DNA of 64,000 bases from an uncultured virus (IMG/VR IMGVR_UViG_3300020219_000015) (taxonomy: Duplodnaviria; Heunggongvirae; Uroviricota; Caudoviricetes), in IMG/VR virus record IMGVR_UViG_3300020219_000015; one strand, written 5' to 3'. Under the pieces are notes generated by a model that had not been told where the DNA came from, did not search any database, and worked only from the letters and a program-made list of their open reading frames with translations. Positions 301-16,836 of this stretch are shown one piece after another. Positions within the stretch are counted from its first letter, which is position 1. Each line of letters begins with the position of its first letter. The translations under genes were made by a program, and so were the position numbers.

Positions 301-792
301 ATGAACCAACTAGAATATACTGCTTTAAAAAACATGGCTTTGTCCTCAGATAAAGAGTCAGCTTATCTAGCTGCTATTATTCTTAGAAAGGAGTCTACAG
401 AAAAAAGTAAAAAGTTATTATATAAAATTCCTTTAGATAGTAGAATAAAAGACTATTCTGATATAATTGATGAATTAAAAATTAAAGAATTAACTATAAA
501 TGACTTTGGTTTTCTACCTGAAAATCAAAGAATAAAACTTTTTGCTTCACATAAAATACAAAATATAGTAGATGTAATAAATGAAGGATGGGTTCCTAAT
601 TTTAATGATTCTACTGAAAGAAAATATTATCCTTACTTTATCAAAAAGAATGGTGTCTGGGGTTTCTACGGCTCTCATTGTCGTCATCATAGTGGTGGTT
701 CTTACGGCATAGTTGGGCTTTACCAAACTGAAGAAAAGTCTAATTTTGTAGGTAAAAAATTTTTGGATATTTATAGTGATTATTTAGATTAA
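301..792 (+). CDS. DGR target protein, copy 2 (163 aa)
   Basis: Contains VR2. The INEGWxPxF...KYYPYF...VR...VGKKFLDIY architecture resembles, from recollection, Bacteroidetes-phage DGR targets. Confidence 0.88.
   Translation: MNQLEYTALKNMALSSDKESAYLAAIILRKESTEKSKKLLYKIPLDSRIKDYSDIIDELKIKELTINDFGFLPENQRIKLFASHKIQNIVDVINEGWVPNFNDSTERKYYPYFIKKNGVWGFYGSHCRHHSGGSYGIVGLYQTEEKSNFVGKKFLDIYSDYLD
652..723 (+). repeat. DGR variable repeat VR2
   Basis: Against the TR: 17 mismatches opposite TR adenines, 1 non-A mismatch and one extra codon. Confidence 0.9.
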
Positions 793-814
793 TAATATGG
801 TTAAGCATCTAACT

Positions 815-883
815 AGTGTCTGGAGTTTCAACAACTCTAATTATCATAATAGTGATAATTCTAACAGCCAAGTTGAGCTATAC
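815..883 (+). ncRNA. DGR template repeat (TR)
   Basis: Non-coding, AAC/AAT-rich copy of both VRs: agt gtc tgg agt ttc aac aac tct aat tat cat aat agt gat aat tct aac agc caa gtt gag cta tac. Confidence 0.88.
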
Positions 884-961
884 TTTAATAGTAAGTAATA
901 GATACTAACCTTAGCATCATGCTAAAAAATAGATAAGTAAAAATAAGATCTTAGTAAATAA

Positions 962-1384
962 TTGAAAAGTTCTTTTAATAAAAGTAAATTAACTATTGTG
1001 GCAAAATTACCGGTAACTGTGGTGTATAAAATAGATGAGGATGGAAATCTTCAACCTAATACAGAAGCAGATAGAATAATGAAAGATTTATTTAAGAAAG
1101 ATTGTAAACAAGGAGAACTTGTAGAGATAACTTATGAAATACAAAATAATGATCACTCATACGGTCAACTAAGTAAGGTGAAACCTATGGTAAGAGAATT
1201 AGCTGCAGAGACTGGAGTAACTTTTATGGAAATGGAAAAGATAATTAAGGAGAAAGTTGGCTTAGTAAATTCTGATGGATCAGTTAAGTCATTTGGAGAT
1301 TGTAGTAAACAAGAAGTAAGTTCTGCTATACAGGCTTGTGAAGAGTTAATGAGTTTTATACGACCAGCAATAGATGAGCAATGA
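962..1384 (+). CDS. Hypothetical protein, possibly NinB/YbcN-like (real start may be the GTG near 998)
   Basis: 140 aa ORF. The ELAAETGVTF...KSFGDCSKQEVS pattern is only weakly NinB-like. No RT motifs. Confidence 0.5.
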   Translation: MKSSFNKSKLTIVAKLPVTVVYKIDEDGNLQPNTEADRIMKDLFKKDCKQGELVEITYEIQNNDHSYGQLSKVKPMVRELAAETGVTFMEMEKIIKEKVGLVNSDGSVKSFGDCSKQEVSSAIQACEELMSFIRPAIDEQ

Positions 1385-1673
1385 TACAGATTATCCAACA
1401 GAATTAGATCTTACTCTTATTGAGAAATGGGATCTAAAAGAACAAGGAGTATTAGAGTTATTAGAATTTGTAAAAAGTAAATGGTGGATGGCTGATTGGG
1501 GATTTATACTCTCTGGTGAAGAAGAATTCACTCTCTCATTATCTACTGGAGGATGGAGTGGAAATGAGGATATTATAAGAGCTCTTAAAAAGAATTTTAT
1601 ATTCTGGAGTATGTATTGGCAGATGAATAGAAGAGGAGGACATTATCAATTTAAGATTACTCTTTCAAAATAG
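1374..1673 (+). CDS. Phage hypothetical protein
   Basis: 99 aa, coupled to the upstream ORF; contains LSTGGWSGNEDII. Confidence 0.7.
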   Translation: MSNDTDYPTELDLTLIEKWDLKEQGVLELLEFVKSKWWMADWGFILSGEEEFTLSLSTGGWSGNEDIIRALKKNFIFWSMYWQMNRRGGHYQFKITLSK

Positions 1674-1971
1674 ATTTTGAAACTGGGTCATATACCTTTT
1701 TTGTAATCTTATTTTGAGCTTTAGCTGCATCTTCATATTGATTACATAACCAGAGTATAGTATGCATGTGATATGTTAATGGGTCTTTATCAGCTTCTCC
1801 ATTATTGATTTTAGCTATCAACTCAGAAAATTGCTGTACATTTTTAATAGGAAAGAAATGAAATAACATGGCTTGTAATCTTTGATATAGAACATTATCT
1901 ACTGTGATTTGTATCTCAGTTCCATTCTCTATAATATCTACTGGTATATGAGCACTAGTGTCTTCTGCCAT
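1657..1971 (-). CDS. Hypothetical protein (lone antisense gene; likely start ATG 1971)
   Basis: Fills the gap between + strand genes and has a TATATTTG element just upstream. Confidence 0.7.
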   Translation of the reverse strand: MAEDTSAHIPVDIIENGTEIQITVDNVLYQRLQAMLFHFFPIKNVQQFSELIAKINNGEADKDPLTYHMHTILWLCNQYEDAAKAQNKITKKVYDPVSKSILKE

Positions 1972-1986
1972 GTGGTTTAGTTTTAA

Positions 1987-1994
1987 CAAATATA
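1987..1994 (-). promoter_or_regulatory. Bacteroidetes-type -7 promoter element
   Basis: Minus strand reads TATATTTG (consensus TAnnTTTG), about 15 nt before the ATG at 1971. Confidence 0.55.
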
Positions 1995-2011
1995 ATTCAA
2001 AAAAGTAAGTT

Positions 2012-2722
2012 ATGGAAAAAACTATAGATCTAGCTGTAATAAAGCAAAAATTATATGAAAGATTAAGTCCTAGTGGATGGGGAAGTAGGCTTAAATCCTT
2101 TCTATTAAGTGAGGAAATGGATAAGATTTTAGGTAAGCTCTATGAAGAGAGTCAGGATGGAAAAAGGTTTACCCCAGTCTTAAAGCAGGTATTTAGAGCA
2201 TTTGAAGAATGTCCTTATGGAGAATTAAAGGTAGTTATGCTAGGACAAGATGCATATCCACAATTAGGAGTGGCTGATGGTATAGCATTCTCTTGTAGTA
2301 ATACAGGAGTATTACAACCATCTTTAAAATATATTCTTCAGGAAGTCCATAGTACTGTATATGGAATGGATAAGTCTTATGATTATAATCCAGATTTAAA
2401 ACACTGGGCCAATCAAGGAGTTTTACTTATTAATACTGCATTTACTACTAGTACTGGTAGAGTAGGTGCTCACTATCTTATATGGAAACCTTTTTTGACA
2501 TTTGTATTAGATATTATATCTTCATATAATCCTGGGATGATCTATGTGTTCTTAGGAAAGGAATCTCAGAAGTATGCAGATTTAATTCCGGATAATACTT
2601 ATAAAATAATGGTATCACATCCTGCATCAGCTGCTTATGCTAAGACATGGGATTCAGAAGATGTATTTAATAAAATTAATAATTTATTAAGAGTCAATAA
2701 TAATTTAAAAATTACATGGTAA
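2012..2722 (+). CDS. ung: Uracil-DNA glycosylase (family 1)
   Basis: Motifs VFRAF, KVVMLGQDAYP, ADGIAFS, WANQGVLLIN and SHPAS. Confidence 0.93.
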   Translation: MEKTIDLAVIKQKLYERLSPSGWGSRLKSFLLSEEMDKILGKLYEESQDGKRFTPVLKQVFRAFEECPYGELKVVMLGQDAYPQLGVADGIAFSCSNTGVLQPSLKYILQEVHSTVYGMDKSYDYNPDLKHWANQGVLLINTAFTTSTGRVGAHYLIWKPFLTFVLDIISSYNPGMIYVFLGKESQKYADLIPDNTYKIMVSHPASAAYAKTWDSEDVFNKINNLLRVNNNLKITW

Positions 2723-2802
2723 TGAAAACTTTATGGAATAGATTTTCAGATTGGTTTGATAAACATTTTGCATGGTTTTTTACTAATGGTAACAAAAACT
2801 AA
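2722..2802 (+). CDS. Small protein (26 aa) MKTLWNRFSDWFDKHFAWFFTNGNKN
   Basis: ATG overlaps the ung stop (TAATG) and its stop directly precedes the next ATG at 2804. Confidence 0.55.
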   Translation: MKTLWNRFSDWFDKHFAWFFTNGNKN

Positions 2803-2803
2803 T

Positions 2804-3025
2804 ATGACAGAAGAAGAAAAAATTAAGCTTAATAAACTTAAGCTCTTAAAAAAGACCAATGAAATGATCTTTATTCTTAGAGGAAAAAAGAGTTGGTTTT
2901 CAGATTTGGAAATTAATAATCCAAGATTTGTGGATTTAATGGCTTCAGGAGTTAAAATGGCTTTTGATAAAACTATTGAGGCAATGAATGAGGAATTTGA
3001 TAAACCTTTCAAAAGAAGAATATAA
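2804..3025 (+). CDS. Hypothetical protein (start revised from 2756)
   Basis: The MTEEEKIK... ATG follows the small-ORF stop. Confidence 0.6.
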   Translation: MTEEEKIKLNKLKLLKKTNEMIFILRGKKSWFSDLEINNPRFVDLMASGVKMAFDKTIEAMNEEFDKPFKRRI

Positions 3026-3030
3026 TTACT

Positions 3031-3192
3031 ATGAAAAAAATTAGTAGTAAAAAACAAAAGTGGCCAGAAGAAAAATTAACCGGATATTCCAAAGAATGTT
3101 TTGAAGCTCTAGCTTATATTGTAGGAGATAGAGAAATAGCAATGGGCTATCTTGGAGTATTTGAGGATATTCATAAGAAATATAAAAAATAA
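3031..3192 (+). CDS. Small hypothetical protein (53 aa)
   Basis: MKKISSKKQKWPEEKL...HKKYKK*; fills the gap in a tightly packed operon. Confidence 0.55.
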   Translation: MKKISSKKQKWPEEKLTGYSKECFEALAYIVGDREIAMGYLGVFEDIHKKYKK

Positions 3193-3198
3193 TAAAAT

Positions 3199-3579
3199 AT
3201 GATTAAATATATGAAAAATGTATCTTATGTGGCTATACCTGGTTTGACCTATACTAATGAGATCACTAAAGAAATTATGTATAGTTCTTGTCACCAAGTG
3301 GCTACTAAAATATGTAATTTATACGGTATAACACTAGAGATACTTAGTTCTAAAAGAAGATATAGAAATGTTGTATTACCTAGACAAATCTATTGTTACA
3401 TGTGTAAGAAATATGTAATGCCCAGACCAACATTAAAACTAATTGGTAATTTTATTAATGTAAATCATGCTACTGTTATTCACTCTATTACTACAGTAGA
3501 GAATCTTATGTCCACAGATACAGAGTTTTCATTAATTATGAAATCAATTGATAAAAAATTTAAACAAAGTAATATCTAG
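3199..3579 (+). CDS. Stand-alone DnaA domain IV (Bac_DnaA_C) helix-turn-helix protein
   Basis: SKRRYRNVVLPRQIYCYM...TLKLIGNFINVNHATVIHSI matches the DnaA C-terminal signature. Confidence 0.8.
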   Translation: MIKYMKNVSYVAIPGLTYTNEITKEIMYSSCHQVATKICNLYGITLEILSSKRRYRNVVLPRQIYCYMCKKYVMPRPTLKLIGNFINVNHATVIHSITTVENLMSTDTEFSLIMKSIDKKFKQSNI

Positions 3580-3582
3580 TAT

Positions 3583-3825
3583 ATGAACAATACTGATTAT
3601 CCTGTAGGTTCCGATACCTCAGATGCTCCCTGGAATGAGCAAGATTATGGAGATAAAGAATGTCCTGTATGTATGGGAGATAAATATTTATATTATGCTC
3701 CTACAGATAGTGATGGAGAATATAATAAAGAGTCCTGTCATAATTGTGATGGTAGTGGAGTTATTCCTATGAATAGGCAAGATCATTTAGATAGACTAGA
3801 ATCTAAAAGAGAAGATATGAAATAG
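3583..3825 (+). CDS. Small DnaJ-type zinc-finger protein
   Basis: Motifs CPVCMGDK and CHNCDGSG. Confidence 0.65.
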   Translation: MNNTDYPVGSDTSDAPWNEQDYGDKECPVCMGDKYLYYAPTDSDGEYNKESCHNCDGSGVIPMNRQDHLDRLESKREDMK

Positions 3826-3858
3826 AAAAACCGGAGTTTTTACTTCCGGTTTTCTATG
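3822..3858. terminator. Bidirectional intrinsic terminator
   Basis: Perfect inverted repeat atagaaaaaccgga / tccggtttttctat. Confidence 0.8.
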
Positions 3859-3937
3859 AGTGTTCAGCTTGACTAACTATGAACAAAGAAATATTTTTTA
3901 CCCCTATTAGTTCTTTTTTGACTTCTGAAATAAAGAT

Positions 3938-4573
3938 ATGGATTTAATTTTAAAATACTATAAAAAATATATTAACATGCTCGAGATATTTAATTTATTG
4001 GCTAAATATGAGCTTTCTCCTAATCAATATTATATGTTGATTAGCATGAAAGAAGGAATTAGTTGTCCTCAGATAAATGAGGCTCAGGAGCTTAGAGCTC
4101 TTATAAGTAAAGATTTTATATATACTGGTGAAAAGGATCTTACTCAAAAATCTTTTGATATTATAGCTGAGGTTGAAGGAATGGTTAAACTAGCTAGTAA
4201 GAAAGTTACCAAGGCTGTATTAGGTCCGGAAGCTAGTGATAGTATAGATAAGTATAGAGAGATGTGGAATATGGGTAAACTACCTTCTGGAGTACCGGCC
4301 CGGGTTAATAAGAAAGAACTAGAGACTAAATTTCAGAAGTTTTTTCAGAAGTATACTTATAGTTGGGAAGAGATCTTAGCAGCCACTGCTTATTATATAG
4401 ATCAGTTTGAAAGAAATAGTCCTCCTTATCTGTATATGAAGAATTCAAGTTACTTTATCTCCAAGATGACTCAGGATAAATCCCAAGAATCAACATTAGC
4501 TAATTATATAGAGCTAATGAGAAGTGGAGATGATGAATTAAAAGCTAAAACATTTAGTGAAAAAGTAGTATGA
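3938..4573 (+). CDS. Hypothetical protein, possibly replication-initiator-like
   Basis: 211 aa ORF upstream of the helicase region; function inferred from position only. Confidence 0.55.
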   Translation: MDLILKYYKKYINMLEIFNLLAKYELSPNQYYMLISMKEGISCPQINEAQELRALISKDFIYTGEKDLTQKSFDIIAEVEGMVKLASKKVTKAVLGPEASDSIDKYREMWNMGKLPSGVPARVNKKELETKFQKFFQKYTYSWEEILAATAYYIDQFERNSPPYLYMKNSSYFISKMTQDKSQESTLANYIELMRSGDDELKAKTFSEKVV

Positions 4574-4782
4574 GTCCTTCTACTATCCTACCTACATATA
4601 TTAGAGAGGACTTATATAATATGGGATTAGATTATTACTTTGCATTTATAGGAAATAATTTTATTATTACATGCAATGATATTGATATATTCACATTTTA
4701 TGTACATCCTAACTATCCTATTTGGGAAACTATGATATTAGATACTATAAAAAAGGCTATTCAAAAAGAAATTGATCCATGA
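4570..4782 (+). CDS. Small hypothetical protein (paralog 1 of 3)
   Basis: ATGA coupling; NMGL motif and IKKAI..IDP ending. Confidence 0.6.
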   Translation: MSPSTILPTYIREDLYNMGLDYYFAFIGNNFIITCNDIDIFTFYVHPNYPIWETMILDTIKKAIQKEIDP

Positions 4783-5036
4783 CTAGAGAAGATGTATTTC
4801 AGAAATTTAAAGATATGGGTCTTATCATAGCAGATGATGTAGAATACCCGTGTTGGATTACTCCAAATAGATCTCATATTATTAATATCGACCATTATAC
4901 AGATAGTGGGATTGGAAATAATACCGGTGGTATACTTATCCAGGAGATGGATGAAAGTGAAATGGGAAGATGGTATGATTATGAATTAGGTATAAAGATG
5001 ATACAAGGTATAATAAAGAAAGCTATAGATCCATGA
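4779..5036 (+). CDS. Small hypothetical protein (paralog 2 of 3)
   Basis: ATGA coupling; KDMGL, WITP and IKKAIDP. Confidence 0.65.
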   Translation: MTREDVFQKFKDMGLIIADDVEYPCWITPNRSHIINIDHYTDSGIGNNTGGILIQEMDESEMGRWYDYELGIKMIQGIIKKAIDP

Positions 5037-5284
5037 AACTTCAAAAAGAAAAGGATTTATTTATTAATAGACTTAAAGATCTTGGATTAGTAGAATATGC
5101 AGATGATTCATGGTATACTCCTGATTGTAAAATCTATGTATATGTACATTATGATTTAAGATATCAGTATCTTTTTATTAGAATATCTCCTTTACCTATG
5201 CAATTAGATGGAGCCTGGAATGCAGAAAATGCTATAAAAAGAATACAAGATTCTATTCAGGAAAATCTAGAATCTTGTAAATAA
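5033..5284 (+). CDS. Small hypothetical protein (paralog 3 of 3)
   Basis: ATGA coupling; KDLGL, WYTP and IKRIQDSI. Confidence 0.65.
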   Translation: MKLQKEKDLFINRLKDLGLVEYADDSWYTPDCKIYVYVHYDLRYQYLFIRISPLPMQLDGAWNAENAIKRIQDSIQENLESCK

Positions 5285-5298
5285 TTATTAATATTTTC

Positions 5299-5329
5299 TT
5301 GTTTAGTATAATAACTTTTTCTATTCTTG
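5299..5329 (+). promoter_or_regulatory. Possible Bacteroidetes-type promoter for the replication operon
   Basis: TTG-N20-TATTCTTG, an imperfect -33/-7 match in an intergenic gap. Confidence 0.35.
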
Positions 5330-5418
5330 TAGTAGAGAATTACAATCCAAAATCTTAATAAAATGCCTCTTAAATCTAACAGATTAGGGGCATTCTTTCT
5401 CTAATAATTAACCAAAAT

Positions 5419-6402
5419 ATGACAGAAAAACCGTGGTCTAGTCAAAGAGATGGGTTCCTAAATAGTCTCCACTACATGAAAAGTAGAATGGAAGGAACTA
5501 TAAAATCTCTCAAGACTCCATGGGCTAAATTTAATGATGCTACTACTGATGGTTTAGAATGGAATTCTGTCACTATAATAGGTGGTAGACCGGCTAGTTT
5601 TAAAACAGGATTAAAAGATCAGATAATAAGAGAATCATTTAAACTTAATCCTGGAGAAGACTTCCGGGTACTAGAATTCTCATTTGAGATGTTAGCTAGA
5701 ACAACAGCTATAAGAGAATATAGTAGTATCCTTCAGAAGTCTTATAAATACTTATGTAGTGCAGATGGAAAATTAACTCAGGATGATCTAGACAAATGTT
5801 ATGCTCATGCTAAAGAAAGAGTTAAATACCCGATAGATATAGTAGAAGAATCTACTACTGTAGATGAATTTGAGGAGATTGTTATAGAGTACATGAAGAA
5901 TCACTCTGAAGTAATAGAAAATAAAAAAGTATATAAGAAAACTATTGTTACAATTGATCATACTTTATTATTCAAATTATCTCCGGCTGAAAAAGGTAAG
6001 AATGATATGCTGTTTCATTTAGGTGAAGTTCTTACTAGGCTTAAGAGAAGATATCCTATTGCTTTTATTGTACTTACTCAACTCAATAGAAATGTTGATT
6101 CTCCGGAAAGGTGTGAGGACGGTAAATATGGTAATTATATTCTTGAGTCAGATATATTTGGAGCTGATGCTATGCTTCAACATGCTGATGTTTTGATAGG
6201 TCTCAATAGACCGGGTAAGCAGAAAATTAGATTCTATGGGCCTGATAGATTTATAATAGATGATGATAAAGTAATAGTAATGCATTTTATTAAATGTAGA
6301 AATGGAGATACTAGGTTAAGTTTCTTTAGAGCAGAATTTGATAAAATGAGATTAGTAGAAATGAATACTCCAGGTCAACAAGAACGAAGATCTAAATCAT
6401 AA
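5419..6402 (+). CDS. dnaB: DnaB-like (SF4) replicative helicase, C-terminal domain only
   Basis: GGRPASFKT Walker A variant, FSFEM, TIDH, LTQLNR, LQHADV and KCRNG. Confidence 0.88.
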   Translation: MTEKPWSSQRDGFLNSLHYMKSRMEGTIKSLKTPWAKFNDATTDGLEWNSVTIIGGRPASFKTGLKDQIIRESFKLNPGEDFRVLEFSFEMLARTTAIREYSSILQKSYKYLCSADGKLTQDDLDKCYAHAKERVKYPIDIVEESTTVDEFEEIVIEYMKNHSEVIENKKVYKKTIVTIDHTLLFKLSPAEKGKNDMLFHLGEVLTRLKRRYPIAFIVLTQLNRNVDSPERCEDGKYGNYILESDIFGADAMLQHADVLIGLNRPGKQKIRFYGPDRFIIDDDKVIVMHFIKCRNGDTRLSFFRAEFDKMRLVEMNTPGQQERRSKS

Positions 6403-6416
6403 TTAAAAATAATATC

Positions 6417-6968
6417 ATGAGTGAAGAAAAAATGAGTAAAGATGTAAGAGATGTTAGAACTGTAGAATTAAGAGTATGGCAGCAGCCAGTATTTGATAAA
6501 TTAGGTTTACCAAATGCATATTATTTACCTAAGATGGCTTATCATGTTAATGGAGTATTAGTCATGGGTATGTTTGATAGTGAGATTAAACCTAATACAG
6601 ATATTTATACTGAAAAAGTAAACTGGTATCATCAACCAGAATATCCGGGAGGAAAATTAATCACTGATACTAATGATAGACAGTTATTAAAATGGAATTT
6701 TAATCCTCAGTGGCATGAAGAATATGGAAGGAAAGATGGCAAACCTAATGGAGCTGTTCTTATTCCTGTAGCAGAAATGATAACTATAGATAGAACTGAG
6801 GCATTACAAACAGAACTTGTAGCTGATTTTAATGATATAATGGATCCTGAAACAGATTCTCCAGTAGATCAATTAACAGGCAGAGATTGGGCAGCTATAA
6901 TGTGGTCTAAACCGGTGGCTTCTAAGAAATGGCTTAATGAGCTAGTACAGAAAACATTTAAGAAGTAA
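6417..6968 (+). CDS. Hypothetical protein
   Basis: 183 aa ORF in the replication operon. Confidence 0.75.
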   Translation: MSEEKMSKDVRDVRTVELRVWQQPVFDKLGLPNAYYLPKMAYHVNGVLVMGMFDSEIKPNTDIYTEKVNWYHQPEYPGGKLITDTNDRQLLKWNFNPQWHEEYGRKDGKPNGAVLIPVAEMITIDRTEALQTELVADFNDIMDPETDSPVDQLTGRDWAAIMWSKPVASKKWLNELVQKTFKK

Positions 6969-6993
6969 TATTAATAATTCTAAAATTAAAACT

Positions 6994-7626
6994 ATGAGCA
7001 GAAGTGAAGAAACTAAAATTAAAAATGTAGCTGAAAAATTTTTACAATGGAAGAATGGAGGATTTCAGTGGTATGATAAAGAAACTGAGACTAAGATGGA
7101 AATCAAATTACCTGTAAAATTTCTTGTACTAGATACACTAAGTACAGTAAAAGGATACAGTGATGCAAATCAAAGTGGTTTCTGGAGTAATGAAGTAAGA
7201 GATACTAAAAAAGAAATCCTATCAGTATATACTAAAAAGGGATTAGCTGCAAAAGGACTCTATGAAGAAGTAAAAGTTCATGCTAATTGTACTGGAGCAA
7301 AATATTCTCAATCAGTATATATAGCACTAATAGAAGGAGATACTCTTAGTTTATGCAATATTCAACTTATGGGGGCAGCTGTTAGTGCATGGATAGATTT
7401 TAGAAAAGATAATCCAGATATATTTACAGGAGGTATTGAGGTAGCTACTTCTATACAAGGAAAAAAAGGAGCAACTGTATATCAGATTCCTGTATTTACT
7501 AAAATAGAAGTTTCTAATGACTTGAATGAAAAAGCAAAAGAACTTGATGTTATTTTACAACAATATTTAACTCAATATTTTAAGAAGAGTGATCCTACTA
7601 TTGAAAATGATAATACTGAAAAATAA
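6994..7626 (+). CDS. Hypothetical protein, possibly ssDNA-binding
   Basis: 210 aa, beta-rich, in a replication context; function is an inference. Confidence 0.55.
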   Translation: MSRSEETKIKNVAEKFLQWKNGGFQWYDKETETKMEIKLPVKFLVLDTLSTVKGYSDANQSGFWSNEVRDTKKEILSVYTKKGLAAKGLYEEVKVHANCTGAKYSQSVYIALIEGDTLSLCNIQLMGAAVSAWIDFRKDNPDIFTGGIEVATSIQGKKGATVYQIPVFTKIEVSNDLNEKAKELDVILQQYLTQYFKKSDPTIENDNTEK

Positions 7627-7631
7627 AAACT

Positions 7632-8348
7632 ATGGAAGAGAATAAAAAGATTAGTACAAAGAAAGCTCCTATTACAGGGAAATTAATAGAACCAGGAAAT
7701 GTTAATGCTAAAATCAATAATATAATCTTTGAAAAAGCAGTATTTAAAAAGAAAGATGAGAAGGATCCTGATTCATGGAATATAATATTTCATATAGAAG
7801 GTCCTGACCTTGGAAAAGATTTTGAAGGATTCTTTATTGATTATGGTAATCCTGCAAAGGGGAGACACCGGGGATTAGTAGGAAAAGTAAAAGCAGATGA
7901 GTGGCCCTTTAAAGATGGAATAACCAAAGGAGGTACTAAGATTGAAAGAGATAAATTACTATTGAGATTCCTTCATAATACTTGTGAGGCTCTTGGATTA
8001 AACTCCTGGCTTGATGAGGAAGATAATAAACATGATAGTGTAGATAGTCTTATCCAGAAATTCTGTACTGATGGTTTGTATAAAGACAAATGGCTTAGAA
8101 TGTGTATTATGGGTAAAGAGTATCTTAATTCTAAAAAGTTCCTGAATTATGATATGGCATTTCCTAAGTTCTCTAAAACTAATGTTCCATTTGAACTAGA
8201 ATCTGTTCCTGCTAGTCAGAGTAGAGTAATATTATTTGATCCTTCTACTCATATAAGAAAGAAGAAAGTTGAATCTGTAGAATCTTTTGGAGAAGAGGAG
8301 ATTAAAGAAGAAACTCCTAAGACTGTGAATAAAGATTTTGAGTTATAA
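7632..8348 (+). CDS. Putative ssDNA-binding protein
   Basis: Acidic C-terminal tail ending DFEL; lies just before the primase. Confidence 0.5.
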   Translation: MEENKKISTKKAPITGKLIEPGNVNAKINNIIFEKAVFKKKDEKDPDSWNIIFHIEGPDLGKDFEGFFIDYGNPAKGRHRGLVGKVKADEWPFKDGITKGGTKIERDKLLLRFLHNTCEALGLNSWLDEEDNKHDSVDSLIQKFCTDGLYKDKWLRMCIMGKEYLNSKKFLNYDMAFPKFSKTNVPFELESVPASQSRVILFDPSTHIRKKKVESVESFGEEEIKEETPKTVNKDFEL

Positions 8349-8364
8349 TCTAATCTATGATAGT

Positions 8365-8393
8365 AAAGAGCCGGAGAAATCTGGCTCTTTTTT
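8365..8393 (+). terminator. Intrinsic terminator
   Basis: aaagagccgga-gaaa-tctggctcttt followed by a T tract. Confidence 0.8.
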
Positions 8394-8414
8394 ATCTTTA
8401 ATCCCTGATGTGTT

Positions 8415-9401
8415 ATGATAAGAACTAAGAAATTGATAGCTAGTATTAATGATGTACCTCCTACCTGGGCATTTGAGTATTATTTGAAATTACCACAAAA
8501 ATTATGTGGACAAGAGGTGTGTATTAGATCTATATTTAATATCAAAGATAAAACTCCATCATTTACTCTCTATTGGCATAAGAAGTTGGGCCGGTATCAG
8601 TTTAAGGATTTCTCTTCAGGATATGGAGGGAGCCAAACAGATCTAATAAGTTTAATGTTTAATATTAAACCTTCTGCTGCTATGTATAAGATCATTGAGG
8701 ATTATAATGAGTTTATCCTTAATAATGGAGACTGTTATGAGATAGCTGAATTCAAAGAACATAGTAAATATAAAGTTACTGAGTTTACAAAGAGACAATG
8801 GAATATATTAGATAGAGAATACTGGATGCAGTATAGTATTGGATCCAAGATACTTGAATATTATAATGTATTTCCTCTTGAAAAATATAAGCTTACTAAA
8901 GAAGATCAAGAGCTGGTTATAACCGGATATAATATTTATGGATTCTTCAGAAAGGATGGGAGTTTATATAAGATTTATCAACCTCATGTCCGGGATAAGA
9001 AATTTATAAAAATCAAGGACTATATCCAGGGAACTGATCAATTAAAATATGAAGCTCCAATACTAGTTATATGCTCTTCTATGAAGGATTTAATGTGTCT
9101 TATAAATTATAAATGGAATATGGAAGCTGTAGCTCCTCATAGTGAGAATACACTAATACCAGAACATATTATTGAAGCTTATAAACACAAGTATAAACTG
9201 ATAGTTACTCTATTAGATAATGATGAGGCCGGGATTAAAGCTATGAAAAAATATCAAGAGAAATATGATATTCCATATGCCCATCTTGAAGGAGAAAAAG
9301 ATCTATCAGATAATATAGCTAAATATAGAAAAGAAGCTATAAAGGGTAATACTTATGATTTAATTTATAATGCACTAAATACTAAACTACAAGAAGTATG
9401 A
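8415..9401 (+). CDS. DNA primase (TOPRIM), crAss-like type
   Basis: DKTPSF...FKDFSSG N-terminal domain, ICSSMKD, APHSEN and LDNDEAG...KDLSD TOPRIM motifs. Confidence 0.85.
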   Translation: MIRTKKLIASINDVPPTWAFEYYLKLPQKLCGQEVCIRSIFNIKDKTPSFTLYWHKKLGRYQFKDFSSGYGGSQTDLISLMFNIKPSAAMYKIIEDYNEFILNNGDCYEIAEFKEHSKYKVTEFTKRQWNILDREYWMQYSIGSKILEYYNVFPLEKYKLTKEDQELVITGYNIYGFFRKDGSLYKIYQPHVRDKKFIKIKDYIQGTDQLKYEAPILVICSSMKDLMCLINYKWNMEAVAPHSENTLIPEHIIEAYKHKYKLIVTLLDNDEAGIKAMKKYQEKYDIPYAHLEGEKDLSDNIAKYRKEAIKGNTYDLIYNALNTKLQEV

Positions 9402-9844
9402 ATAATTTAAAAATTCTAAGTCTCGATGTAGCAACTCATTGTGGTTGGTGCACTGAAACAGCTTCTGGAGTATGGGATTTCTCTATAAAAAGAGATGAAA
9501 GTTCTGGTATGAGGCTAATACGATTTAAGTCCAAGCTTAGAGAACTTGTAGATATAGAAAAAGTAAATCTAATTACTTTTGAAAGAACATCTGGCTTTCA
9601 TAAGAATGCATTAATAGTCCAAGCTGAATTACATGGAGTATTAAAGATCTTTTGTGAAGAAAATAAAATTGAGTATAGAGCATTTTCTGCTAGTGAGATA
9701 AAGAAATTTGCTACAGGAAAAGGGAATGCTGGTAAACCTGCTATGGTTCAGGCAGCTCAAGAGAAATATGGATATGCTGGTTATAATGATAATGAAGCTG
9801 ATGCTATTCATATATATCAATTAACAAAATCTTTTTATACATAG
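9398..9844 (+). CDS. RuvC-like Holliday junction resolvase
   Basis: ILSLDVATHCGW, ITFE, IKKFATGKGNAGK and DNEADA. Confidence 0.85.
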   Translation: MNNLKILSLDVATHCGWCTETASGVWDFSIKRDESSGMRLIRFKSKLRELVDIEKVNLITFERTSGFHKNALIVQAELHGVLKIFCEENKIEYRAFSASEIKKFATGKGNAGKPAMVQAAQEKYGYAGYNDNEADAIHIYQLTKSFYT

Positions 9845-9848
9845 TATT

Positions 9849-10150
9849 ATGACGAAAGTAAGTAATCTACGTACATTAACAAATATAGATCCTAAAGATT
9901 CAATTACAGTAGCTCCTGCTTATAATTCCTATCATACTAGTTGTATAATATGTAAAAATACGTTTAATGTATATATATACAGATTAATCAACCTTATCAA
10001 ACTAGTCTATGTGATAGGTGTATAGATAACTTAAAGAATATAGATAGACATGATATTGATAAAGCAGTTAGAGTGGGATCTGAATTAGATGGTATTACTC
10101 ATGAGTTGATTGAAATAACAAGATGGTATAAAAAAATGAAAAATATGTAA
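9849..10150 (+). pseudogene. CxxC-CxxC zinc-finger gene frameshifted at (TA)5, 9970-9979
   Basis: Removing one TA unit gives a 99 aa ORF with CIIC and CDRC that exactly fills the intergenic gap. Confidence 0.7.
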
Positions 10151-10151
10151 T

Positions 10152-10583
10152 ATGGAAAAAGTACAACAAGAAAAAATAACAGTAGATATAAATAATTATG
10201 AGAACTTTTGGGCTCTTCTTAATTCTGCAGATAAAGAGAATTCTGTAGTAGCTCTAACTATACTTAATAATGCAAATTTCCGGGAATCATTACCGTATAT
10301 ATTACTATTATTTAAATCTCAGGATGAGGCATCTAGAGCTACTTGGTTAAATAATGCCCTGGATTTAAAAAAGAAATTAGAGGGTATTGATATTAATAGT
10401 AACTCTAATCTTAGTTACAAAGCTATTATAGATTTAGTAAAAGATAAATGTCCAATAGAAGCTGTTCAGTTTACAATAGATAAATTTAGTTTAGTACTAA
10501 AGAAATATCTGGTAGAGTGGGGATTTGATTTTGTTAAAGATTTGGATCTAGTTTTAAAACTTAAAGTAGAAGATGGAAAATGA
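10152..10583 (+). CDS. Helical protein related to the C-termini of 14604 and 15730
   Basis: LLNSADKENSVVALTILNNANFRESLPYILLLF. Confidence 0.75.
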   Translation: MEKVQQEKITVDINNYENFWALLNSADKENSVVALTILNNANFRESLPYILLLFKSQDEASRATWLNNALDLKKKLEGIDINSNSNLSYKAIIDLVKDKCPIEAVQFTIDKFSLVLKKYLVEWGFDFVKDLDLVLKLKVEDGK

Positions 10584-10779
10584 CTCTGAAGAGATAATGG
10601 ATATGACTGGATTTGAAACAGTATTTCAGATACATGTTAAAATTGATCATGATAATAAAGATGCAGAAGTAAAAATAGAACATAAGCATGATGAAATTCC
10701 TAATGAAATATTAGTTGGTATACTTGAGTCTTTTATAAACCATCTTAAGGTAAAACAAGATAGAAGAAATATAAATTAG
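10573..10779 (+). CDS. Small hypothetical protein
   Basis: 68 aa, overlapping start. Confidence 0.6.
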   Translation: MENDSEEIMDMTGFETVFQIHVKIDHDNKDAEVKIEHKHDEIPNEILVGILESFINHLKVKQDRRNIN

Positions 10780-10800
10780 AATATTATAAATATTATAAAT

Positions 10801-12126
10801 ATGATAAATAAACATGATTCATTAGCAAAAGCATGTAAGCAGCTCTGCCTTAAAGAGCCATTTTATGGATTGTTCTTAATGATGCTTAATAAAGAATGGA
10901 ACAATACTAAAGTTCCAAGTGCCGGAGTAAGTAAGAATGGTATAAATTATCAGTTAACAGTTAATGAAAATTTCTGGAATGGTCTTACTGAATTATGGCA
11001 GTTAATGATTATGAAGCATGAACTACTTCATATATCATTCTTTCATCTGGAGAATCAAGATAGGTTCCCGGATAAAGTAGTAGCTAATATAGCTATGGAT
11101 ATTGAGATCAATCAGTATATTGATCCATCTTGGCTTCCTTGTTTTGATGTAACTACTAAAGAGTTTGAGGCTAAGTATACTCCTATTGGTAAAAAGTTAG
11201 CAGAAGATGTTAAAGATGGAGTTATTACAATGGAAGAGTATACTAAACAGAGTCATGCTATTCCTCCAAGAGGTGTGTATATCCAGGATTTTCCGGAATT
11301 GAAGTTAGAGCCTAAGAAAGGAACTAAGTATTACTATGATAAGTTAATGCAAGGTAAAGAGCAAAAAGAGAAAACCGGAAGTTCAGGATCCTCAGCTCTA
11401 GATAGTCTATTAGATCAAATGGATAGTGGACAACCTACAGTATGTGATCATGGCACTTGGAAAGAGTTTGAAGCTATGTCAGAGACTGAAAAGAAGCTAT
11501 TAAGAAGCCAGACTGATTTTCATCTTAAAGAAGTAGCTGATGCTATTACTAAAAGCCGGGGAACTATTCCAAGTGAGTTAGCTGATTACATTAGTAAGAT
11601 AGATCACAAAGAGCCTCCTAAATTTGACTGGAAGGGGTATCTAAGAAGATTTACCGGTGGTTCTACTAAGATCTATACTAAGAAGCTTCATAGGAAGTAT
11701 AATAAGAGATTTGAAGATAATCCGGGATTAAAGATTAAGCAAAAGAGACATGTTCTAGTAGCTGTAGATACTTCAGGATCTGTAAGTAAAAATGAACTTG
11801 AAGAATTCTTTCATGAGATCTATCATATACACAAAGGAGGCACTGAAGTAACAGTAGTCCAATGTGATGCTGCTATAGCTAAAATAGAACCTTTTAAAAA
11901 GGATACTGCAGATAAGATTAAAGTTCATGGCCGGGGAGGAACTAGTTTTGATCCTCCATGTGATTATTTTAATGAGAATCCTCATAAGTATAGCTGTATG
12001 ATCTATTTTACTGATGGAGAAGCTCCAGCACCTGTAAATAAGATAAGAGGGAAGATACTATGGGTATTATCTAGTACATCTAATCTAAATGATGAATTAC
12101 CGGGATTAAAAATAAAATTGAATTAA
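10801..12126 (+). CDS. Metallopeptidase-like plus vWA domain protein (DUF2201-type)
   Basis: KHELLH and NIAMDIEINQ in the N-terminal part; MIDAS motif VAVDTSGS, GRGGTSF and IYFTDG. Confidence 0.88.
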   Translation: MINKHDSLAKACKQLCLKEPFYGLFLMMLNKEWNNTKVPSAGVSKNGINYQLTVNENFWNGLTELWQLMIMKHELLHISFFHLENQDRFPDKVVANIAMDIEINQYIDPSWLPCFDVTTKEFEAKYTPIGKKLAEDVKDGVITMEEYTKQSHAIPPRGVYIQDFPELKLEPKKGTKYYYDKLMQGKEQKEKTGSSGSSALDSLLDQMDSGQPTVCDHGTWKEFEAMSETEKKLLRSQTDFHLKEVADAITKSRGTIPSELADYISKIDHKEPPKFDWKGYLRRFTGGSTKIYTKKLHRKYNKRFEDNPGLKIKQKRHVLVAVDTSGSVSKNELEEFFHEIYHIHKGGTEVTVVQCDAAIAKIEPFKKDTADKIKVHGRGGTSFDPPCDYFNENPHKYSCMIYFTDGEAPAPVNKIRGKILWVLSSTSNLNDELPGLKIKLN

Positions 12127-12149
12127 TAAATATTTAAACTAAAAAGGAT

Positions 12150-14410
12150 ATGAGCAAAGAAAATGCACAAGTAAATTTAAACATAGATGAACTAAAAGAC
12201 TTCCTAAAGCATATAATAAAGAATAATGAATATATTCAGCTATCTAATAAAAATCCGGTGGCTGTAGAAGTAATTGGAGAATCAGGAATTGGTAAGACTT
12301 CTGCAGTAGTTCAGTTGGCTGATGAATTAAAGTTAAACTTTATAAAGTTAAACTTAAGTCAAATAGAAGAGTTAGGGGATTAAACATTGCTTATCTGGAA
12401 GAGTTTTGTAACTTTGTAGACAAAACTTAACTAAGATGAAAAATCTCTTCTATGAACTAAAAGTAAATGAACTCAAATCTAAGTGTGGTGTATATATGAT
12501 ATCGTGTAAAGATCATAAATATATAGGTAGTAGTAAGTCTTTATATTCCCGGTTAAGGGAGCATAGAGGTGATATGCTATTGAATAACCATACTAATTCT
12601 TTCCTTCAAGCTTGTTATAATAAATATAGTGCTTCTGAAATATTTTATACTATTCTGGAACTTTGTTCTCCTGAAGAGAGAATATGTAAAGAAGCCTTAT
12701 ATATTAAACAGCTTGAGTCGGATATGAATATGCAGAATCCTGTTACTAAAACTTTATCGAATATAAGTAAGAAAAAAATATCAAAATCATTGATAAAAGC
12801 TTACTTAGAAGGTAGAAAAGTTACTAAGCAGCAGAGTCCGGTAGAGATGTATGATCTGAATGGAAATTTCATCAAAGAGTATAATAGTAGTGATGAAGCA
12901 GCTAAAGAGAATGGAGTAAGTCCTCATACTATACAAATAGCAGCAAGTAAATATTATGCTGGTAGATTATGTGGATTAAGAAGATTTAGATATAAATTTT
13001 CAAAATTTCCTCCAAAGAAATTCTCTTATGTTAGACCTCAGAGTATAACATCTAGATTTGAGTTTGTAATAGTAGAACCTAATAATAATGTGATTAAGAT
13101 AAAGTCTGGAGTAAAAAATATAAATCAGGCTATTGTTGATCAATTATTAAAAGGTAATACTGAATTTAAGATTAAAGGATATCCCAAGGTCCCCTTTAAA
13201 TCGGGTGAATTGCTGGAACAGCCTGAAAAGGCCAATCAGCAGCCAAGCTAATCAGGAATGGTTAGAAGGTTCAACGACTAGTAGCATACCACCAGAAAGG
13301 TGATGAAGCTGCCAAGAGCTCCCGACAATAGTATAGCAAAACTATTGATGATATAGTCTGAACAGTAGCTATAAATAAAACTACTGAATTACAAGATAAA
13401 GAACTTGTAAGATAACAATATTGTTAGTGGGATATCCTATTAGACAATTTCAGTTGTGTAAGAAAGAAACTAAAGCTGTTGGATCTTTAGGTACTGATTT
13501 AGTTAATTGTATATGGATAGATGAGCATGCTATTTCTGAGTATATAAAGCAAGGATATGCATTTACTGGTGACAAGAGGATGTCCTATTGTCCTCCAGAA
13601 TGGATTGCAGATAAACAAGGAGGAGGTATATTATTATTGGATGACTGGAACCGGGCAGATTTGAGATTTCTTCAGGCTGTGATGGAATTGGTAGATAGAC
13701 AAGAATATATATCATGGAAGCTTCCTAAGGGCTGGAATATCTTTCTAAGTGCTAATCCGGATAATGGAGATTACTTAGTTAATACTATAGATGTGGCTCA
13801 AAAGACAAGGTTCATATCGGCTAATTTAAAGTTTGATATTACCTGCTGGGCAAGATGGGCTGAGAAACAAGGTATAGATGGCCGGTGTATTAATTTCTTG
13901 CTCTTACATCCTGAAGTAGTAACTCAACAATGTAATTCAAGATCTATTACTAACTTCTTTAATAGTATTAGTTCATTTGAAAAGTTTGAAGACAATCTTC
14001 CTATGATTCAGCTAATTGGAGAAGGATCAGTAGGTCCTCAATTCTCAACTATGTTTACTATTTTCATTAATAATAAACTGGATAAATTAGTTAGTCCTAA
14101 AGAGATGCTTACTAATCCAAACTGGATTCATGTTAAATCAGAACTGAAAGCTTGTGTAGGTGAAGGAAATGGTTATAGATCCGATATAGCAAGTATCTTA
14201 AGTACAAGGTTAATAAACTATAGTATAGTACATGCAGAAAAGCATACTATAACTAAAGATCTAACTGATAGATTAATTGCTATTACTACAGAGGAGATTC
14301 TTGCTAATGATCTAAAGTATTTTATAGTTAAAAGTATACTTAATGCAAATAAATCAAAATTTCAGGGAATAATGTTAAATAAAGAAGTAGTGGCAATGGC
14401 AATAAAATAA
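12150..14410 (+). CDS. MoxR-like AAA+ ATPase; exons 12150-12380 and 13424-14410 (405 aa spliced)
   Basis: Walker A GESGIGKT in exon 1; LLLDDWNRA and SANP in exon 2; the junction restores IEELGD|LVGYP in frame. Confidence 0.9.
12387..12416 (+). promoter_or_regulatory. Intron-internal Bacteroidetes-type promoter for the endonuclease
   Basis: TTG-N19-TAACTTTG, about 20 nt before the ATG at 12436. Confidence 0.6.
12436..13251 (+). CDS. Intron-encoded GIY-YIG homing endonuclease with a NUMOD1-like domain
   Basis: GVYMI...YIGSS...RLREH; PVEMYDLNGNFIKEY. Confidence 0.9.
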   Translation: MKNLFYELKVNELKSKCGVYMISCKDHKYIGSSKSLYSRLREHRGDMLLNNHTNSFLQACYNKYSASEIFYTILELCSPEERICKEALYIKQLESDMNMQNPVTKTLSNISKKKISKSLIKAYLEGRKVTKQQSPVEMYDLNGNFIKEYNSSDEAAKENGVSPHTIQIAASKYYAGRLCGLRRFRYKFSKFPPKKFSYVRPQSITSRFEFVIVEPNNNVIKIKSGVKNINQAIVDQLLKGNTEFKIKGYPKVPFKSGELLEQPEKANQQPS

Positions 14411-14412
14411 CA

Positions 14413-14607
14413 ATGATTAATTTTTTAAGATATAGATATGAACCCGGACTCAATGATGAAAAAAGACTACAATTATGTATTAGTTATTTTTGTCTTATTG
14501 AGTCCGGCTATATTGATTCTGGAACAGATGATGTACATAAATTTGTAAGTCTTATGGGAAGAAATGAACAATCTATTATGTATAGAATAAATAAGAAAAG
14601 AAAATGA
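14413..14607 (+). CDS. Small hypothetical protein
   Basis: 64 aa, coupled within the operon. Confidence 0.55.
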   Translation: MINFLRYRYEPGLNDEKRLQLCISYFCLIESGYIDSGTDDVHKFVSLMGRNEQSIMYRINKKRK

Positions 14608-15737
14608 GTTATAATCCATTTATTAAAATAGATCAGGATAAGATTGATAAACTTCCCTGGATTCAACAGGGTTGGCAATATTATTTTGCTGATAGTAATA
14701 AAAGTATTGGTGTAGGTATTGTATATGATGTCTCAAGAGAGACCTATGGTAAACTTAATGAAAGACTTAGGGGGTCTGGAAATGACACTATTAAGCCAAA
14801 AGATAAAGTATATCTCTTACCTGGTAGTAAGATTCCCTTGTTTAAGTTAAAAGATCATCTTAGAAAAATAGGAGCTACTCATGTTGGTGATATAAATAAA
14901 GCTACATTCTTTATAGGTAATAATAATATAGCTTTTAAAGTTGAACATGCTCAAGCAAAGATGACTAATATTATATTTACTGATAGAAGTCCTGAAATAG
15001 TTACAGATAATTATTCATGTGAGAGTCATTTTACTACTAGATATTCTACAGAGGCCAGATCTTCTGTAGAAGGTTATATTAATAGTGGTGATAGATATTC
15101 TCAGATATATTTAGCTTATCCTACTTGTAGAGGAGGTATAGACTGGGTTGAAAGTAGATTTGTTCAATATTTTGTTACTCCGGTAGCAGCTATGATTATT
15201 TATAATTCTATATCTAAGAAGATTCCAATTGTTAGTGAGGATGTAATTCTTGATCAGATGTCATCTACTATTATAGATCAAGAAGTATATGAAAGTATAG
15301 TAAGTATGTTTCAGAGTAAAGATCGAACTAATCATGAAATAGGAATAGAAATTATGGCTAATTGTGATATAAAGAAATCTATCTTTTATTTATGGAAATT
15401 AAATAAAGGATGGTCTTACAAAATTAATAATTCAAGAATGAAAAATATAAGATTATTTGTTGAGAGATCTGCATGGAAGGACTTATATGGTATGGATGCA
15501 GAAGACTTTATTGAGTATATGTATACTAATGATTATTTAACTAAAGAGTTTTATCAGGAATTAATTAAGACAGCTGCTGAGAACTATAAAGATAAGTTTA
15601 AGTTAGAGTCTCCTGTATTTAAAATAACATTAGCTCCATCTGAGAAATATAAAGAGTATTCAGATGAGACTAATGTGTTTGAGTTTACTCATAAGGATGA
15701 ACAAACTACAACAAGAAATATTGAAAACTATGCATAA
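14604..15737 (+). CDS. BRCT-like domain protein, paralog A
   Basis: KVYLLPGSKIPLFKLKD...GDINKATFFIG; C-terminal SKDRTNHEIGIEIMANC. Confidence 0.7.
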   Translation: MSYNPFIKIDQDKIDKLPWIQQGWQYYFADSNKSIGVGIVYDVSRETYGKLNERLRGSGNDTIKPKDKVYLLPGSKIPLFKLKDHLRKIGATHVGDINKATFFIGNNNIAFKVEHAQAKMTNIIFTDRSPEIVTDNYSCESHFTTRYSTEARSSVEGYINSGDRYSQIYLAYPTCRGGIDWVESRFVQYFVTPVAAMIIYNSISKKIPIVSEDVILDQMSSTIIDQEVYESIVSMFQSKDRTNHEIGIEIMANCDIKKSIFYLWKLNKGWSYKINNSRMKNIRLFVERSAWKDLYGMDAEDFIEYMYTNDYLTKEFYQELIKTAAENYKDKFKLESPVFKITLAPSEKYKEYSDETNVFEFTHKDEQTTTRNIENYA

Positions 15738-16836
15738 TAAATTTGAGGAAACTATTGTAATTGATAGGTTTGATGCTAGTACTAATTGTATAAAATATTC
15801 TAAAAGGTTTGTATATATTCCTGAAATAACTTCAAGAATTCCGGATGATGAAGATGAAAGTGAATATAAAGTAGAATGGGTTAATTGGAGTGAGTTATAT
15901 AAAGATATCTCAAAGAAAAATCTTGATATTACTAATGTAAATACTATACATTTTTATAATAAATGTACAGTTCCTAGGTTTAAATTAAAAGACTTTTGTA
16001 CTGCAAATAGTATATCTTCAGTAAGAGATAGTAATAAAGCAGATATTGTAATATTAGGTCCGGAAAGTATAGATACAACTATTTATACTTCTTACTCAAC
16101 AATTATAGAACCTGAAGTACTATATACTATCATATTTACTCATAAAGATATCCTTTTAGGAGAGTTTAGTAATCTTGATCAATTTCTTTCTGATTTGAAA
16201 TCCTGTACATGTAAATATATATTTAATACTCAAGACTATGCTTACTATGCTTTTAGAAAAATATTTATTAGTAAAGGATTAATTAAAATTAGTGAACAAC
16301 TTCAAGGTTTTATAGTAAATAGGTTCTCTATTACTAATGATCCAAGTTTTGTAGATAAACTAATTGATCCTAATAATAATTTCTATGGTCAAGATAGTAT
16401 CTTGAGACTTTTAAATATAGGAGCTATAATAAATAAAGAAGTAAGTGATCAAATCAGTGCTCTAATTGATAGTGAAGATAAACAGAACGTAGTAGTAGCT
16501 ATGGAGATTATGGCTAATTGCAACTATGAAGAATCTATTATATACTTATGTCTATTATTTAGAAACTATTATGGAACCAAATTTAGGTCAGTAAAAGAAA
16601 ATAATGCTGTAAATTTTATATCTCTTAAAAAGTATTTGGGTCTTAATTTATATCGTATTACTTTAGATAATATTGTAAATGTATGTATTAATAAAGATCT
16701 ATTGACTCAATCTAATATTGATATCCTTCAGAGTATTGCATTTGCTGAAGCTCAAGAATCTGCTAATACTAAATATTTTTGGATTACTAAAGTGGATTTT
16801 GTTAAAGAAGCTATAGAAGAGGAGGTAGAAGTATGA
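15730..16836 (+). CDS. BRCT-like domain protein, paralog B (start revised from 15664)
   Basis: IHFYNKCTVPRFKLKD...RDSNKADIVIL; C-terminal SEDKQNVVVAMEIMANC. Confidence 0.7.
   Translation: MHNKFEETIVIDRFDASTNCIKYSKRFVYIPEITSRIPDDEDESEYKVEWVNWSELYKDISKKNLDITNVNTIHFYNKCTVPRFKLKDFCTANSISSVRDSNKADIVILGPESIDTTIYTSYSTIIEPEVLYTIIFTHKDILLGEFSNLDQFLSDLKSCTCKYIFNTQDYAYYAFRKIFISKGLIKISEQLQGFIVNRFSITNDPSFVDKLIDPNNNFYGQDSILRLLNIGAIINKEVSDQISALIDSEDKQNVVVAMEIMANCNYEESIIYLCLLFRNYYGTKFRSVKENNAVNFISLKKYLGLNLYRITLDNIVNVCINKDLLTQSNIDILQSIAFAEAQESANTKYFWITKVDFVKEAIEEEVEV

Follow-up and report, generated by a model that had tools for sequence, protein, structure and literature searches.

MoxR-type AAA+ ATPases that work with proteins bearing the vWA (von Willebrand factor type A) domain are known from both bacteria and phages. 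In bacteria, they form part of the MoxR-vWA ternary conflict systems, whose effector-associated domains (EADs) are treated by Kaur et al. 2020 (PMC7159879), and targets of diversity-generating retroelements (DGRs) bearing EAD8 appear in the account of Dore et al. 2024 (PMC10907252). In jumbo phages, a MoxR ATPase is paired with a metallopeptidase-vWA protein, for which a role in virion assembly has been proposed (Iyer et al. 2021, PMC7824862). [quoted passage not shown] The phage peptidase-vWA/MoxR pair is a widespread orphan machine. What is known of phage DGRs concerns chiefly tail fibres: those of crAss-like phages are reported to target tail fibres with lectin domains (PMC12386605), and annotated variable repeats (VRs) have been tied to lectin folds in surveys by Roux et al. 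(bioRxiv 10.1101/2020.04.01.020958) and Wu et al. (PMC5758913). Here we describe a stretch of 64,000 nt (the window), the first 64 kb of the linear 75,652-nt uncultured virus record IMGVR_UViG_3300020219_000015 (63% complete), in which a small DGR target, protein T (301–792), begins with a helical hairpin that is shared with three proteins, A, B and C, encoded around a zincin metallopeptidase-vWA/MoxR gene pair. The DGR cassette, the operon and its downstream neighbour all lie on the + strand.

The original prediction had proposed a motif common to T and the three operon proteins. All four 23-residue strings are indeed present, at residues 6–28 of T, 16–38 of ORF (open reading frame) 10152 (A), 229–251 of ORF 14604 (B) and 261–283 of ORF 15664–16836 (C), although the leading Y of the motif pattern is S in protein C. 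If this position is left out, no ORF in a six-frame translation of the 75.6-kb contig fits the pattern apart from these four, from which it had been derived in the first place. A direct blastp comparison of T with A is not significant (E 0.28). Profile searches were made with the window and its near-identical twin excluded and with 827 six-frame segments scanned. T is the top non-member among these segments (11.4 bits, E 0.008; next 2.7). It reaches 15.9 bits (E 2.6e-4) with a profile of A-type rows only and 14.8 bits (E 7.5e-4; next 3.3) with a 113-row profile, while the B-type rows alone give 4.4 bits (E 1.5, not significant). When residues 1–35 of T are scored against a 59-row hidden Markov model of the hairpin, from which its own and near-identical rows were removed, they obtain 15.8 bits. 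This score is reached by none of 3000 plain shuffles and none of 3000 that keep the hydrophobic pattern, and the best of 4153 control windows from the other long ORFs of the contig attains 7.8 bits; the comparison with shuffled controls by which the idea was to be judged thus came out in its favour. In hhalign, seven targets matched 62 operon hairpins with a probability of 91% (E 1.1e-6, 29 columns). The hairpin also occurs on four further targets in two other phages, where the best scores 23.8 bits (E 9e-6 in 547,456 residues). As judged from these comparisons, the first ~30 residues of T are homologous to the two-helix S-x-D hairpin of A, B and C. A chance likeness of amphipathic helices would fit the blastp and B-only results; it is refuted by the shuffles, the hhalign comparison and the motif on the four additional targets, and is scarcely credible.

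The proteins that carry the hairpin in the operon stand on either side of the enzyme pair. Protein A (10152–10583; 143 aa; motif 10197–10265) is a stand-alone helical domain beginning with the hairpin. It is followed by the zincin metallopeptidase-vWA fusion (10801–12126; PF13203 and PF09967; phrog_1314, E 1e-55), with intact HExxH and DxSxS (MIDAS) motifs, and by the MoxR-type AAA+ ATPase (12150–14410), whose two exons (12150–12380 and 13424–14410) both match phrog_1297. Protein B (14604–15737; 377 aa; motif 15288–15356) consists of a BRCT-like domain (residues ~63–110) and, at its C-terminus, a helical domain of which the hairpin is the first part. Protein C (motif 16444–16512) is a B paralogue; its ORF spans 15664–16836 (390 aa), with a likely ATG start at 15730 (15730–16836; 368 aa). 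A PD-(D/E)XK exonuclease without the hairpin (16833–17840; PF12705, phrog_412) is the conserved downstream neighbour. B and C are related by blastp (E 1e-10 over 253 columns), as are A and C (E 4e-10, A being aligned to the last third of C), and the alignments among the three span 124–253 columns. Sequence comparison thus places A, B and C in a single family of one stand-alone domain and two BRCT-like paralogues, so that their hairpins, although all three proteins do carry one, are not the three separate occurrences that had been envisaged.

The hairpin is the best-conserved part of these otherwise fast-evolving proteins (S in 106/113 rows, D in 96/113 and M in 96/113). In the model of B (pLDDT 80.7) its helices are residues 226–237 and 241–252. 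The BRCT resemblance of B rests on Foldseek probabilities of 0.98/0.96 but an E of 0.14, on a structural alignment with Z 5.7 (rmsd 3.5, 79 residues aligned) and on an Atlas lead of 0.80; Foldseek searches of the PDB with B gave no match at E<=0.001. The ESM Atlas returned hypothetical viral clusters only for A and B, and B has no match in the cultured-phage collection.

The arrangement recurs in related phages. Of 79 loci selected by B, many of them short, all have MoxR, 75 have vWA, 71 have A and 69 have the exonuclease, and two B/C paralogues occur in 9. When loci were selected by the vWA protein, the ATPase gene proved to be followed by a hairpin gene in 44 of those 46 that extend far enough, and in 42 of 67 a hairpin gene stands before the vWA gene. 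There are operon variants with two tandem A genes, or with an additional A-type gene that separates the ATPase from B (L066 5103–5973; L271–L276, L318–L324), and a subgroup (L282–L303) lacks the A gene before vWA. The vWA protein matches 268 phage records and is 49–58% identical across phages; HExxH and DxSxS are each intact in 59/59 homologues and Walker A in 51/53 ATPases. This is the same pair of adjacent proteins, with intact catalytic motifs, as the phage pair described previously (PHROG 1297 and 1314; DUF2201_N and DUF2201). It differs in being flanked by the hairpin protein A and the BRCT-like B/C, and in that the block is situated in the replication arm of the genome.

T is a protein of 163 aa in which the hairpin (307–393; helices at residues 3–13 and 18–31 in the model) precedes a PHROG 11581-type alpha/beta domain (phrog_11581, E 2e-14). 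In the structure model (pLDDT 89) the VR forms a beta-hairpin loop, at residues ~119–140, between two strands. The VR (653–723) differs from the 68-nt template repeat (TR, 816–883) at 16 places, 15 of them TR adenines. The 3′ end of a DGR reverse transcriptase (RT) lies just upstream (249–304), its TGA stop overlapping the ATG of T, and positions 245–301 are matched by the RT of a related cassette (68% identity, RT residues 298–316). Upstream of 249, contigs from 3 of 4 runs extend in other sequence, in which the RT frame stays open (as read by eye). Four database variants of T show differences almost confined to the VR, and of the 15 variable places seen in four runs, which group at 667–711, 12 face TR adenines. 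Given the adenine-specific mismatches, the VR variation across samples and the RT 3′ end, the DGR acting on T is real and active. In relatives, 15/15, 15/15 and 13/13 mismatches over 60 nt are at adenines, and 15/22 in a second TR/VR pair of the relative G003 (ungapped window). Both VRs in the window are 3 nt longer than the TR and other variants have the TR length or are 3 nt shorter: retrohoming is accompanied by codon-size indels.

The second of these VRs (105–175), with 17/18 mismatches at TR adenines, belongs to the 3′ part of another T copy that is truncated by the start of the contig (1–243). Bases 1–252 equal 549–800 except in the VR, forming a 252-nt direct repeat with a spacing of 548, and the junction lies inside the RT tail at a short shared word. 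Positions 1–800 are therefore likely to represent a 548-bp tandem duplication of the RT tail and T, present in part of the population; the read depth over T is 1.3–1.6 times that downstream in 3 of 4 runs. The possibility that 1–243 is an old paralogue and that the RT has been lost was dropped, as this segment differs from T in the VR only and its junction falls within the RT tail. The two T copies carry different VRs derived from one TR.

T shares with phage DGRs of the BPP-1 type the adenine-specific TR/VR relationship, the C-terminal VR, an RT adjoining the target and paired targets. It differs from them as a small replication-arm protein without a tail-fibre body, and in the short TR that follows each target. 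No C-type lectin is found among the 50 listed PDB matches of the T model (best Z 5.5; the listing is dominated by residues 1–63). Its matches in BFVD are uncharacterised viral proteins only, and the cultured-phage collection holds one weak match only.

Relatives of the T cassette and of the operon were then compared. Among 30 operon records searched, the only RT above the cut-off is in G003, a complete genome of 126.6 kb, whose cassette has the order target-TR-RT-target-TR at the matching place and in which both targets start with the hairpin. In G003 the RT gene is spread over two frames, with the break at a run of G (L086 12523–13477), by a frameshift or an assembly error. A weak RT-family match in G026 (E 6e-4, under the cut-off) has no TR/VR repeat and was set aside. 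The fragments L091/L092 have the layout of G003 and include the best-scoring target hairpin, and L091 has a complete RT. Other phages often have the C-terminal domain of T in their DGR cassettes, with 152 ORFs (of which 106 are unique) at 78 viral loci and 127 ORFs at 69 metagenome loci. The hairpin is present on only 4 of the 106 unique ORFs and, in the metagenome set, only in the phage of the window and that of G003. The N-termini of this target family are interchangeable: about 40 of the 106 have another helical pair and 13 have beta modules. This other pair is not homologous to the hairpin (hhalign 0.3%) and was not seen on nearby non-target proteins. The loci L088–L165 define a large family of DGR targets of 125–190 aa, usually in tandem pairs before the RT, in Bacteroidota-type phages and prophages; they have swappable N-termini, no lectin match among the listed PDB matches, and structural look-alikes in gut crAss-like phages.

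Distribution follows the operon to a large extent. The hairpin was found in 37/37 operon records searched. When 50 of the 78 viral target loci were searched at record level, vWA was found only in G003 (1 of 22 near-complete records), which is also the only near-complete record with hairpin targets among those 50. Of 47 records that have related DGR targets but in which the operon is not known, just one, G032, a 13-kb fragment of a G003-type cassette, has a hairpin match at E<=0.001. The hairpin might bind a single host structure or protein and so co-localise its carriers without direct contact with the machine, which would suit its conserved surface without genome-specific co-variation and its presence in a lineage possibly without the operon (L091/L092); its absence from 46/47 of these other phage records with T's target family, many of Bacteroidota-type context, makes such a host anchor very improbable.

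The hairpin also moves. In a tree of the C-terminal domain, built from 25 of the 91 non-redundant rows with the VR columns kept, a single clade of hairpin targets is rejected (p-AU 0.0005) and 3 changes are needed. In G003, which has the operon, the targets come from two subclades and both have the hairpin; in G060, a complete crAss-like record with a crAss-type primase and no vWA, MoxR or hairpin, the targets belong to the same two subclades and both lack it. The N-terminal module has thus been swapped more than once, and its gain or loss on target subclades parallels the operon in G003 versus G060. On these comparisons the hairpin is a lineage-specific, mobile module. It is not limited to targets: 21 carrier ORFs outside the operon and the DGR, when inspected, proved to be mostly small proteins without a name, several of them mutually homologous, in which the hairpin is N-terminal, internal or C-terminal. 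A Dda-like helicase of G004 (L256 843–2498) has the hairpin fused to its N-terminus, with 11.4 bits locally and an E of 9e-4 when the record was searched. Two related families of ~135 and ~200 aa (L244, L246–L249, L251–L255, L259), which have no Pfam or PHROG name, carry an internal hairpin; in many relatives their genes lie ~9–10 kb upstream of the operon.

In several ways the hairpin resembles the EADs of the bacterial systems as these are presented in the sources cited above. It is a small all-alpha, non-enzymatic module on conserved components adjoining a MoxR-vWA pair; further copies are found on proteins of other kinds encoded away from the pair, DGR-diversified proteins among them. The extra copies appear to track the core genes, as seen for the flanking genes and the matches outside the operon; vWA and MoxR lack the module, and L091 is a possible exception. 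It differs in being phage-encoded and in measuring ~30 aa rather than forming a folded domain, and the Pfam EAD families match none of the 62 hairpins. Moreover, the copies within one EAD genome are described as closer to each other, which is not the case here. The suggestion that a bacterial vWA-MoxR (VMAP) conflict system could serve as the model does not hold, since the pair is of the peptidase-fused phage type. The vWA domain is C-terminal, behind the zincin, and is not fused to a C-type-lectin effector as in the described VMAP systems; T, likewise, has no lectin among its listed matches. Pfam includes VMAP models, and no VMAP-type Pfam match was obtained on A, B or C at E<=0.1. In the papers searched we found no account of the hairpin or of a phage DGR target linked to MoxR/vWA; the target family may be listed in the supplements of Roux et al., Wu et al. 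and Iyer et al.

What might the hairpin do? Since T starts with a module common to the proteins flanking the ATPase/protease genes, it may be expected to dock on that machine. We propose, as a tentative reading that falls a little short of an even chance, that the ~30-residue S-x-D hairpin is a docking handle tying its carriers, T included, to the peptidase-vWA/MoxR machine in the infected cell. Its lineage-specificity and its mobility fit such a tag. From what is known of the family, a MoxR hexamer and its vWA partner would remodel client proteins. The reader of the hairpin would be a conserved component of the operon: the hairpin would stack on a short ARM-like solenoid of A/B/C, or else bind the vWA protein or the ATPase. 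Its near-invariant Asp, which lies in an exposed turn in the model, could be a MIDAS ligand; equally, it could be a helix N-cap. The VR loop would bind a variable intracellular protein of the host or of a rival phage, and the bound protein would then be remodelled or cut. A complex prediction with the vWA protein of the window, the MoxR of the relative L007, T and 2 Mg scored 0.01 against a mark of 0.32 and speaks neither way.

Several observations weigh against docking. The hairpin is absent from vWA and from MoxR themselves. Two of the five target hairpins are weak (4.1 bits and below), near background, and are recognised by alignment only. Target hairpins are not nearest to the operon hairpins of their own genome: these rank 23, 42 and 53 of 62 for the window and 10–62 of 62 for G003, in a comparison that covers 23 columns only. 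DGRs are rare in operon phages (1 of 67 other operon records), the target family together with an RT being found in 1/30 records and the target family in 0/37 (these cover 37 of 67 vWA loci, mostly in incomplete records); T is an optional plug-in and not a core part. Many carriers are not DGR proteins, with 25 hairpin matches at E<=0.001 outside the operon and the DGR in 19 of 31 operon records. Hairpin targets are known in only three phage lineages, two of which are linked by their cassette. A third, remote target-family gene of G003 starts with a different, non-hairpin segment. Finally, L091/L092 are fragments of 15–17 kb and their nearest complete relative, G118 (40% identity to the L091 phage over a 1215-aa protein, versus a partial 26% for G003), has no vWA, MoxR or hairpin; no longer relative of L091 was found. 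Its RT is closest to that of G003 (72%), and its cassette could be explained by transfer. The expectation that the hairpin and the operon would co-occur in relatives therefore largely held, with L091/G118 and the third target of G003 as exceptions.

The lack of genome-specific pairing would suit one conserved reader such as the vWA protein, and thus the possibility that the hairpin is a substrate tag, or degron. In that case the carriers, including T and A/B/C, would be unfolded or cut by the MoxR-vWA-peptidase for timed activation or turnover, and the VR would be independent of the machine. The invariably intact HExxH and MIDAS motifs, the exposed Asp, the acidic client residues bound by the NorD MIDAS and the presence of the tag on unrelated proteins, including a helicase, are consistent with this. 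However, the Asp is replaced by Asn in 8/113 rows, S-x-D is a common helix cap, and A/B/C have the look of stable partners retained next to the enzymes; we regard a degron as improbable.

The ordinary ARM/HEAT shape of the hairpin, a further point against docking, leads to an alternative that is somewhat unlikely but must be taken seriously: a lineage-specific, general ARM/HEAT-like interaction or folding unit, spread by recombination, which on T would cap the domain or pair two targets and have no link with vWA/MoxR. The hairpin is a helix-turn-helix with a Ser-x-Asp turn, and residues 221–297 of B (Z up to 6.5, a generic level) and 1–63 of T align with ARM/HEAT solenoids. It differs from these repeats in that Z is at most 6.5 and in occurring mostly as a single copy per protein, not in tandem arrays; there is no Pfam Arm/HEAT match among the 62 hairpins. 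The warning in the original prediction that the motif might be a generic HEAT-like hairpin was thus apt as regards shape, whereas a chance match is excluded by the shuffles and the profile comparison. The T model shows the hairpin packed against the domain with high confidence (pLDDT 94–95), and a general module would simply replace the other interchangeable N-termini of the target family. The counter-cases of L091 and of the third G003 target would find an explanation, as would the missing genome-specific match between hairpins, and the co-occurrence could reflect shared ancestry, hairpin donors being present only in operon phages. Yet a general module does not readily account for a hairpin that is best conserved in A/B/C, whose fixed carriers flank the vWA/MoxR pair, or for its gain and loss on target subclades together with the operon in G003 versus G060; lone hairpins at the termini of unrelated proteins, moreover, need a partner in trans. 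The shared docking tag initially envisaged thus stands as regards a lineage-specific and mobile hairpin, and is weakened by the ARM/HEAT-like shape, the many non-DGR carriers, the optional DGR and the two counter-cases; the host-takeover or anti-defence role suggested along with it is speculative.

The record itself has a two-arm layout: the + strand carries the replication genes as far as a strand switch at ~23.5 kb, after which large structural genes follow on the − strand. Its primase matched 85 phage records, mostly crAss-like, at ~30% identity; by these matches and the layout the phage is crAss-like. At least half of the sampled words are present in 10 of 13 listed runs, all ten labelled microbial mat metagenome, and none of the listed runs holding phage sequence is an RNA dataset. 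Likely group I introns with homing endonucleases interrupt the MoxR gene (12381–13423) and the DNA polymerase gene (19431–20529). The former contains a GIY-YIG/NUMOD1 endonuclease at 12436–13251 (PF01541, PF07453); the exon ends in T and the insert in G, and the two exons, once joined, keep the frame seen in intact homologues. Both DNA polymerase pieces match phrog_1252. Rfam detected neither intron and gave no match in the window at the gathering score. A 114-nt segment is present in two tandem copies, 99% identical, at 45416–45643 within a 1019-aa ORF (44470–47529). An open frame of ~100 codons with two Cys-x2-Cys pairs (9848–10155; read by eye and absent from the ORF-tool list) overlaps the start of A.

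At the level of sequence, a hypervariable phage protein is solidly tied to an orphan ATPase/protease block, and the tie recurs in relatives. The common tag singles out proteins that may be clients or adaptors of the orphan machine, and it suggests that a large family of small DGR targets of Bacteroidota-type phages acts inside the cell. Since every part is small and suited to expression in E. coli, the idea is directly testable without the uncultured phage. In its fullest form, which we consider rather unlikely, aquatic crAss-like phages would possess a plug-and-play, ATP-driven protease or remodeller to which a universal hairpin addresses any protein, the DGR-randomised non-lectin domain acting in some lineages as a retargetable degradation adaptor (a natural programmable degrader) against host defences or rivals, a mirror of bacterial DGR/EAD/MoxR immunity. 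If docking is true, a 30-residue tag and a randomisable loop would together make a compact, retargetable degradation tool.

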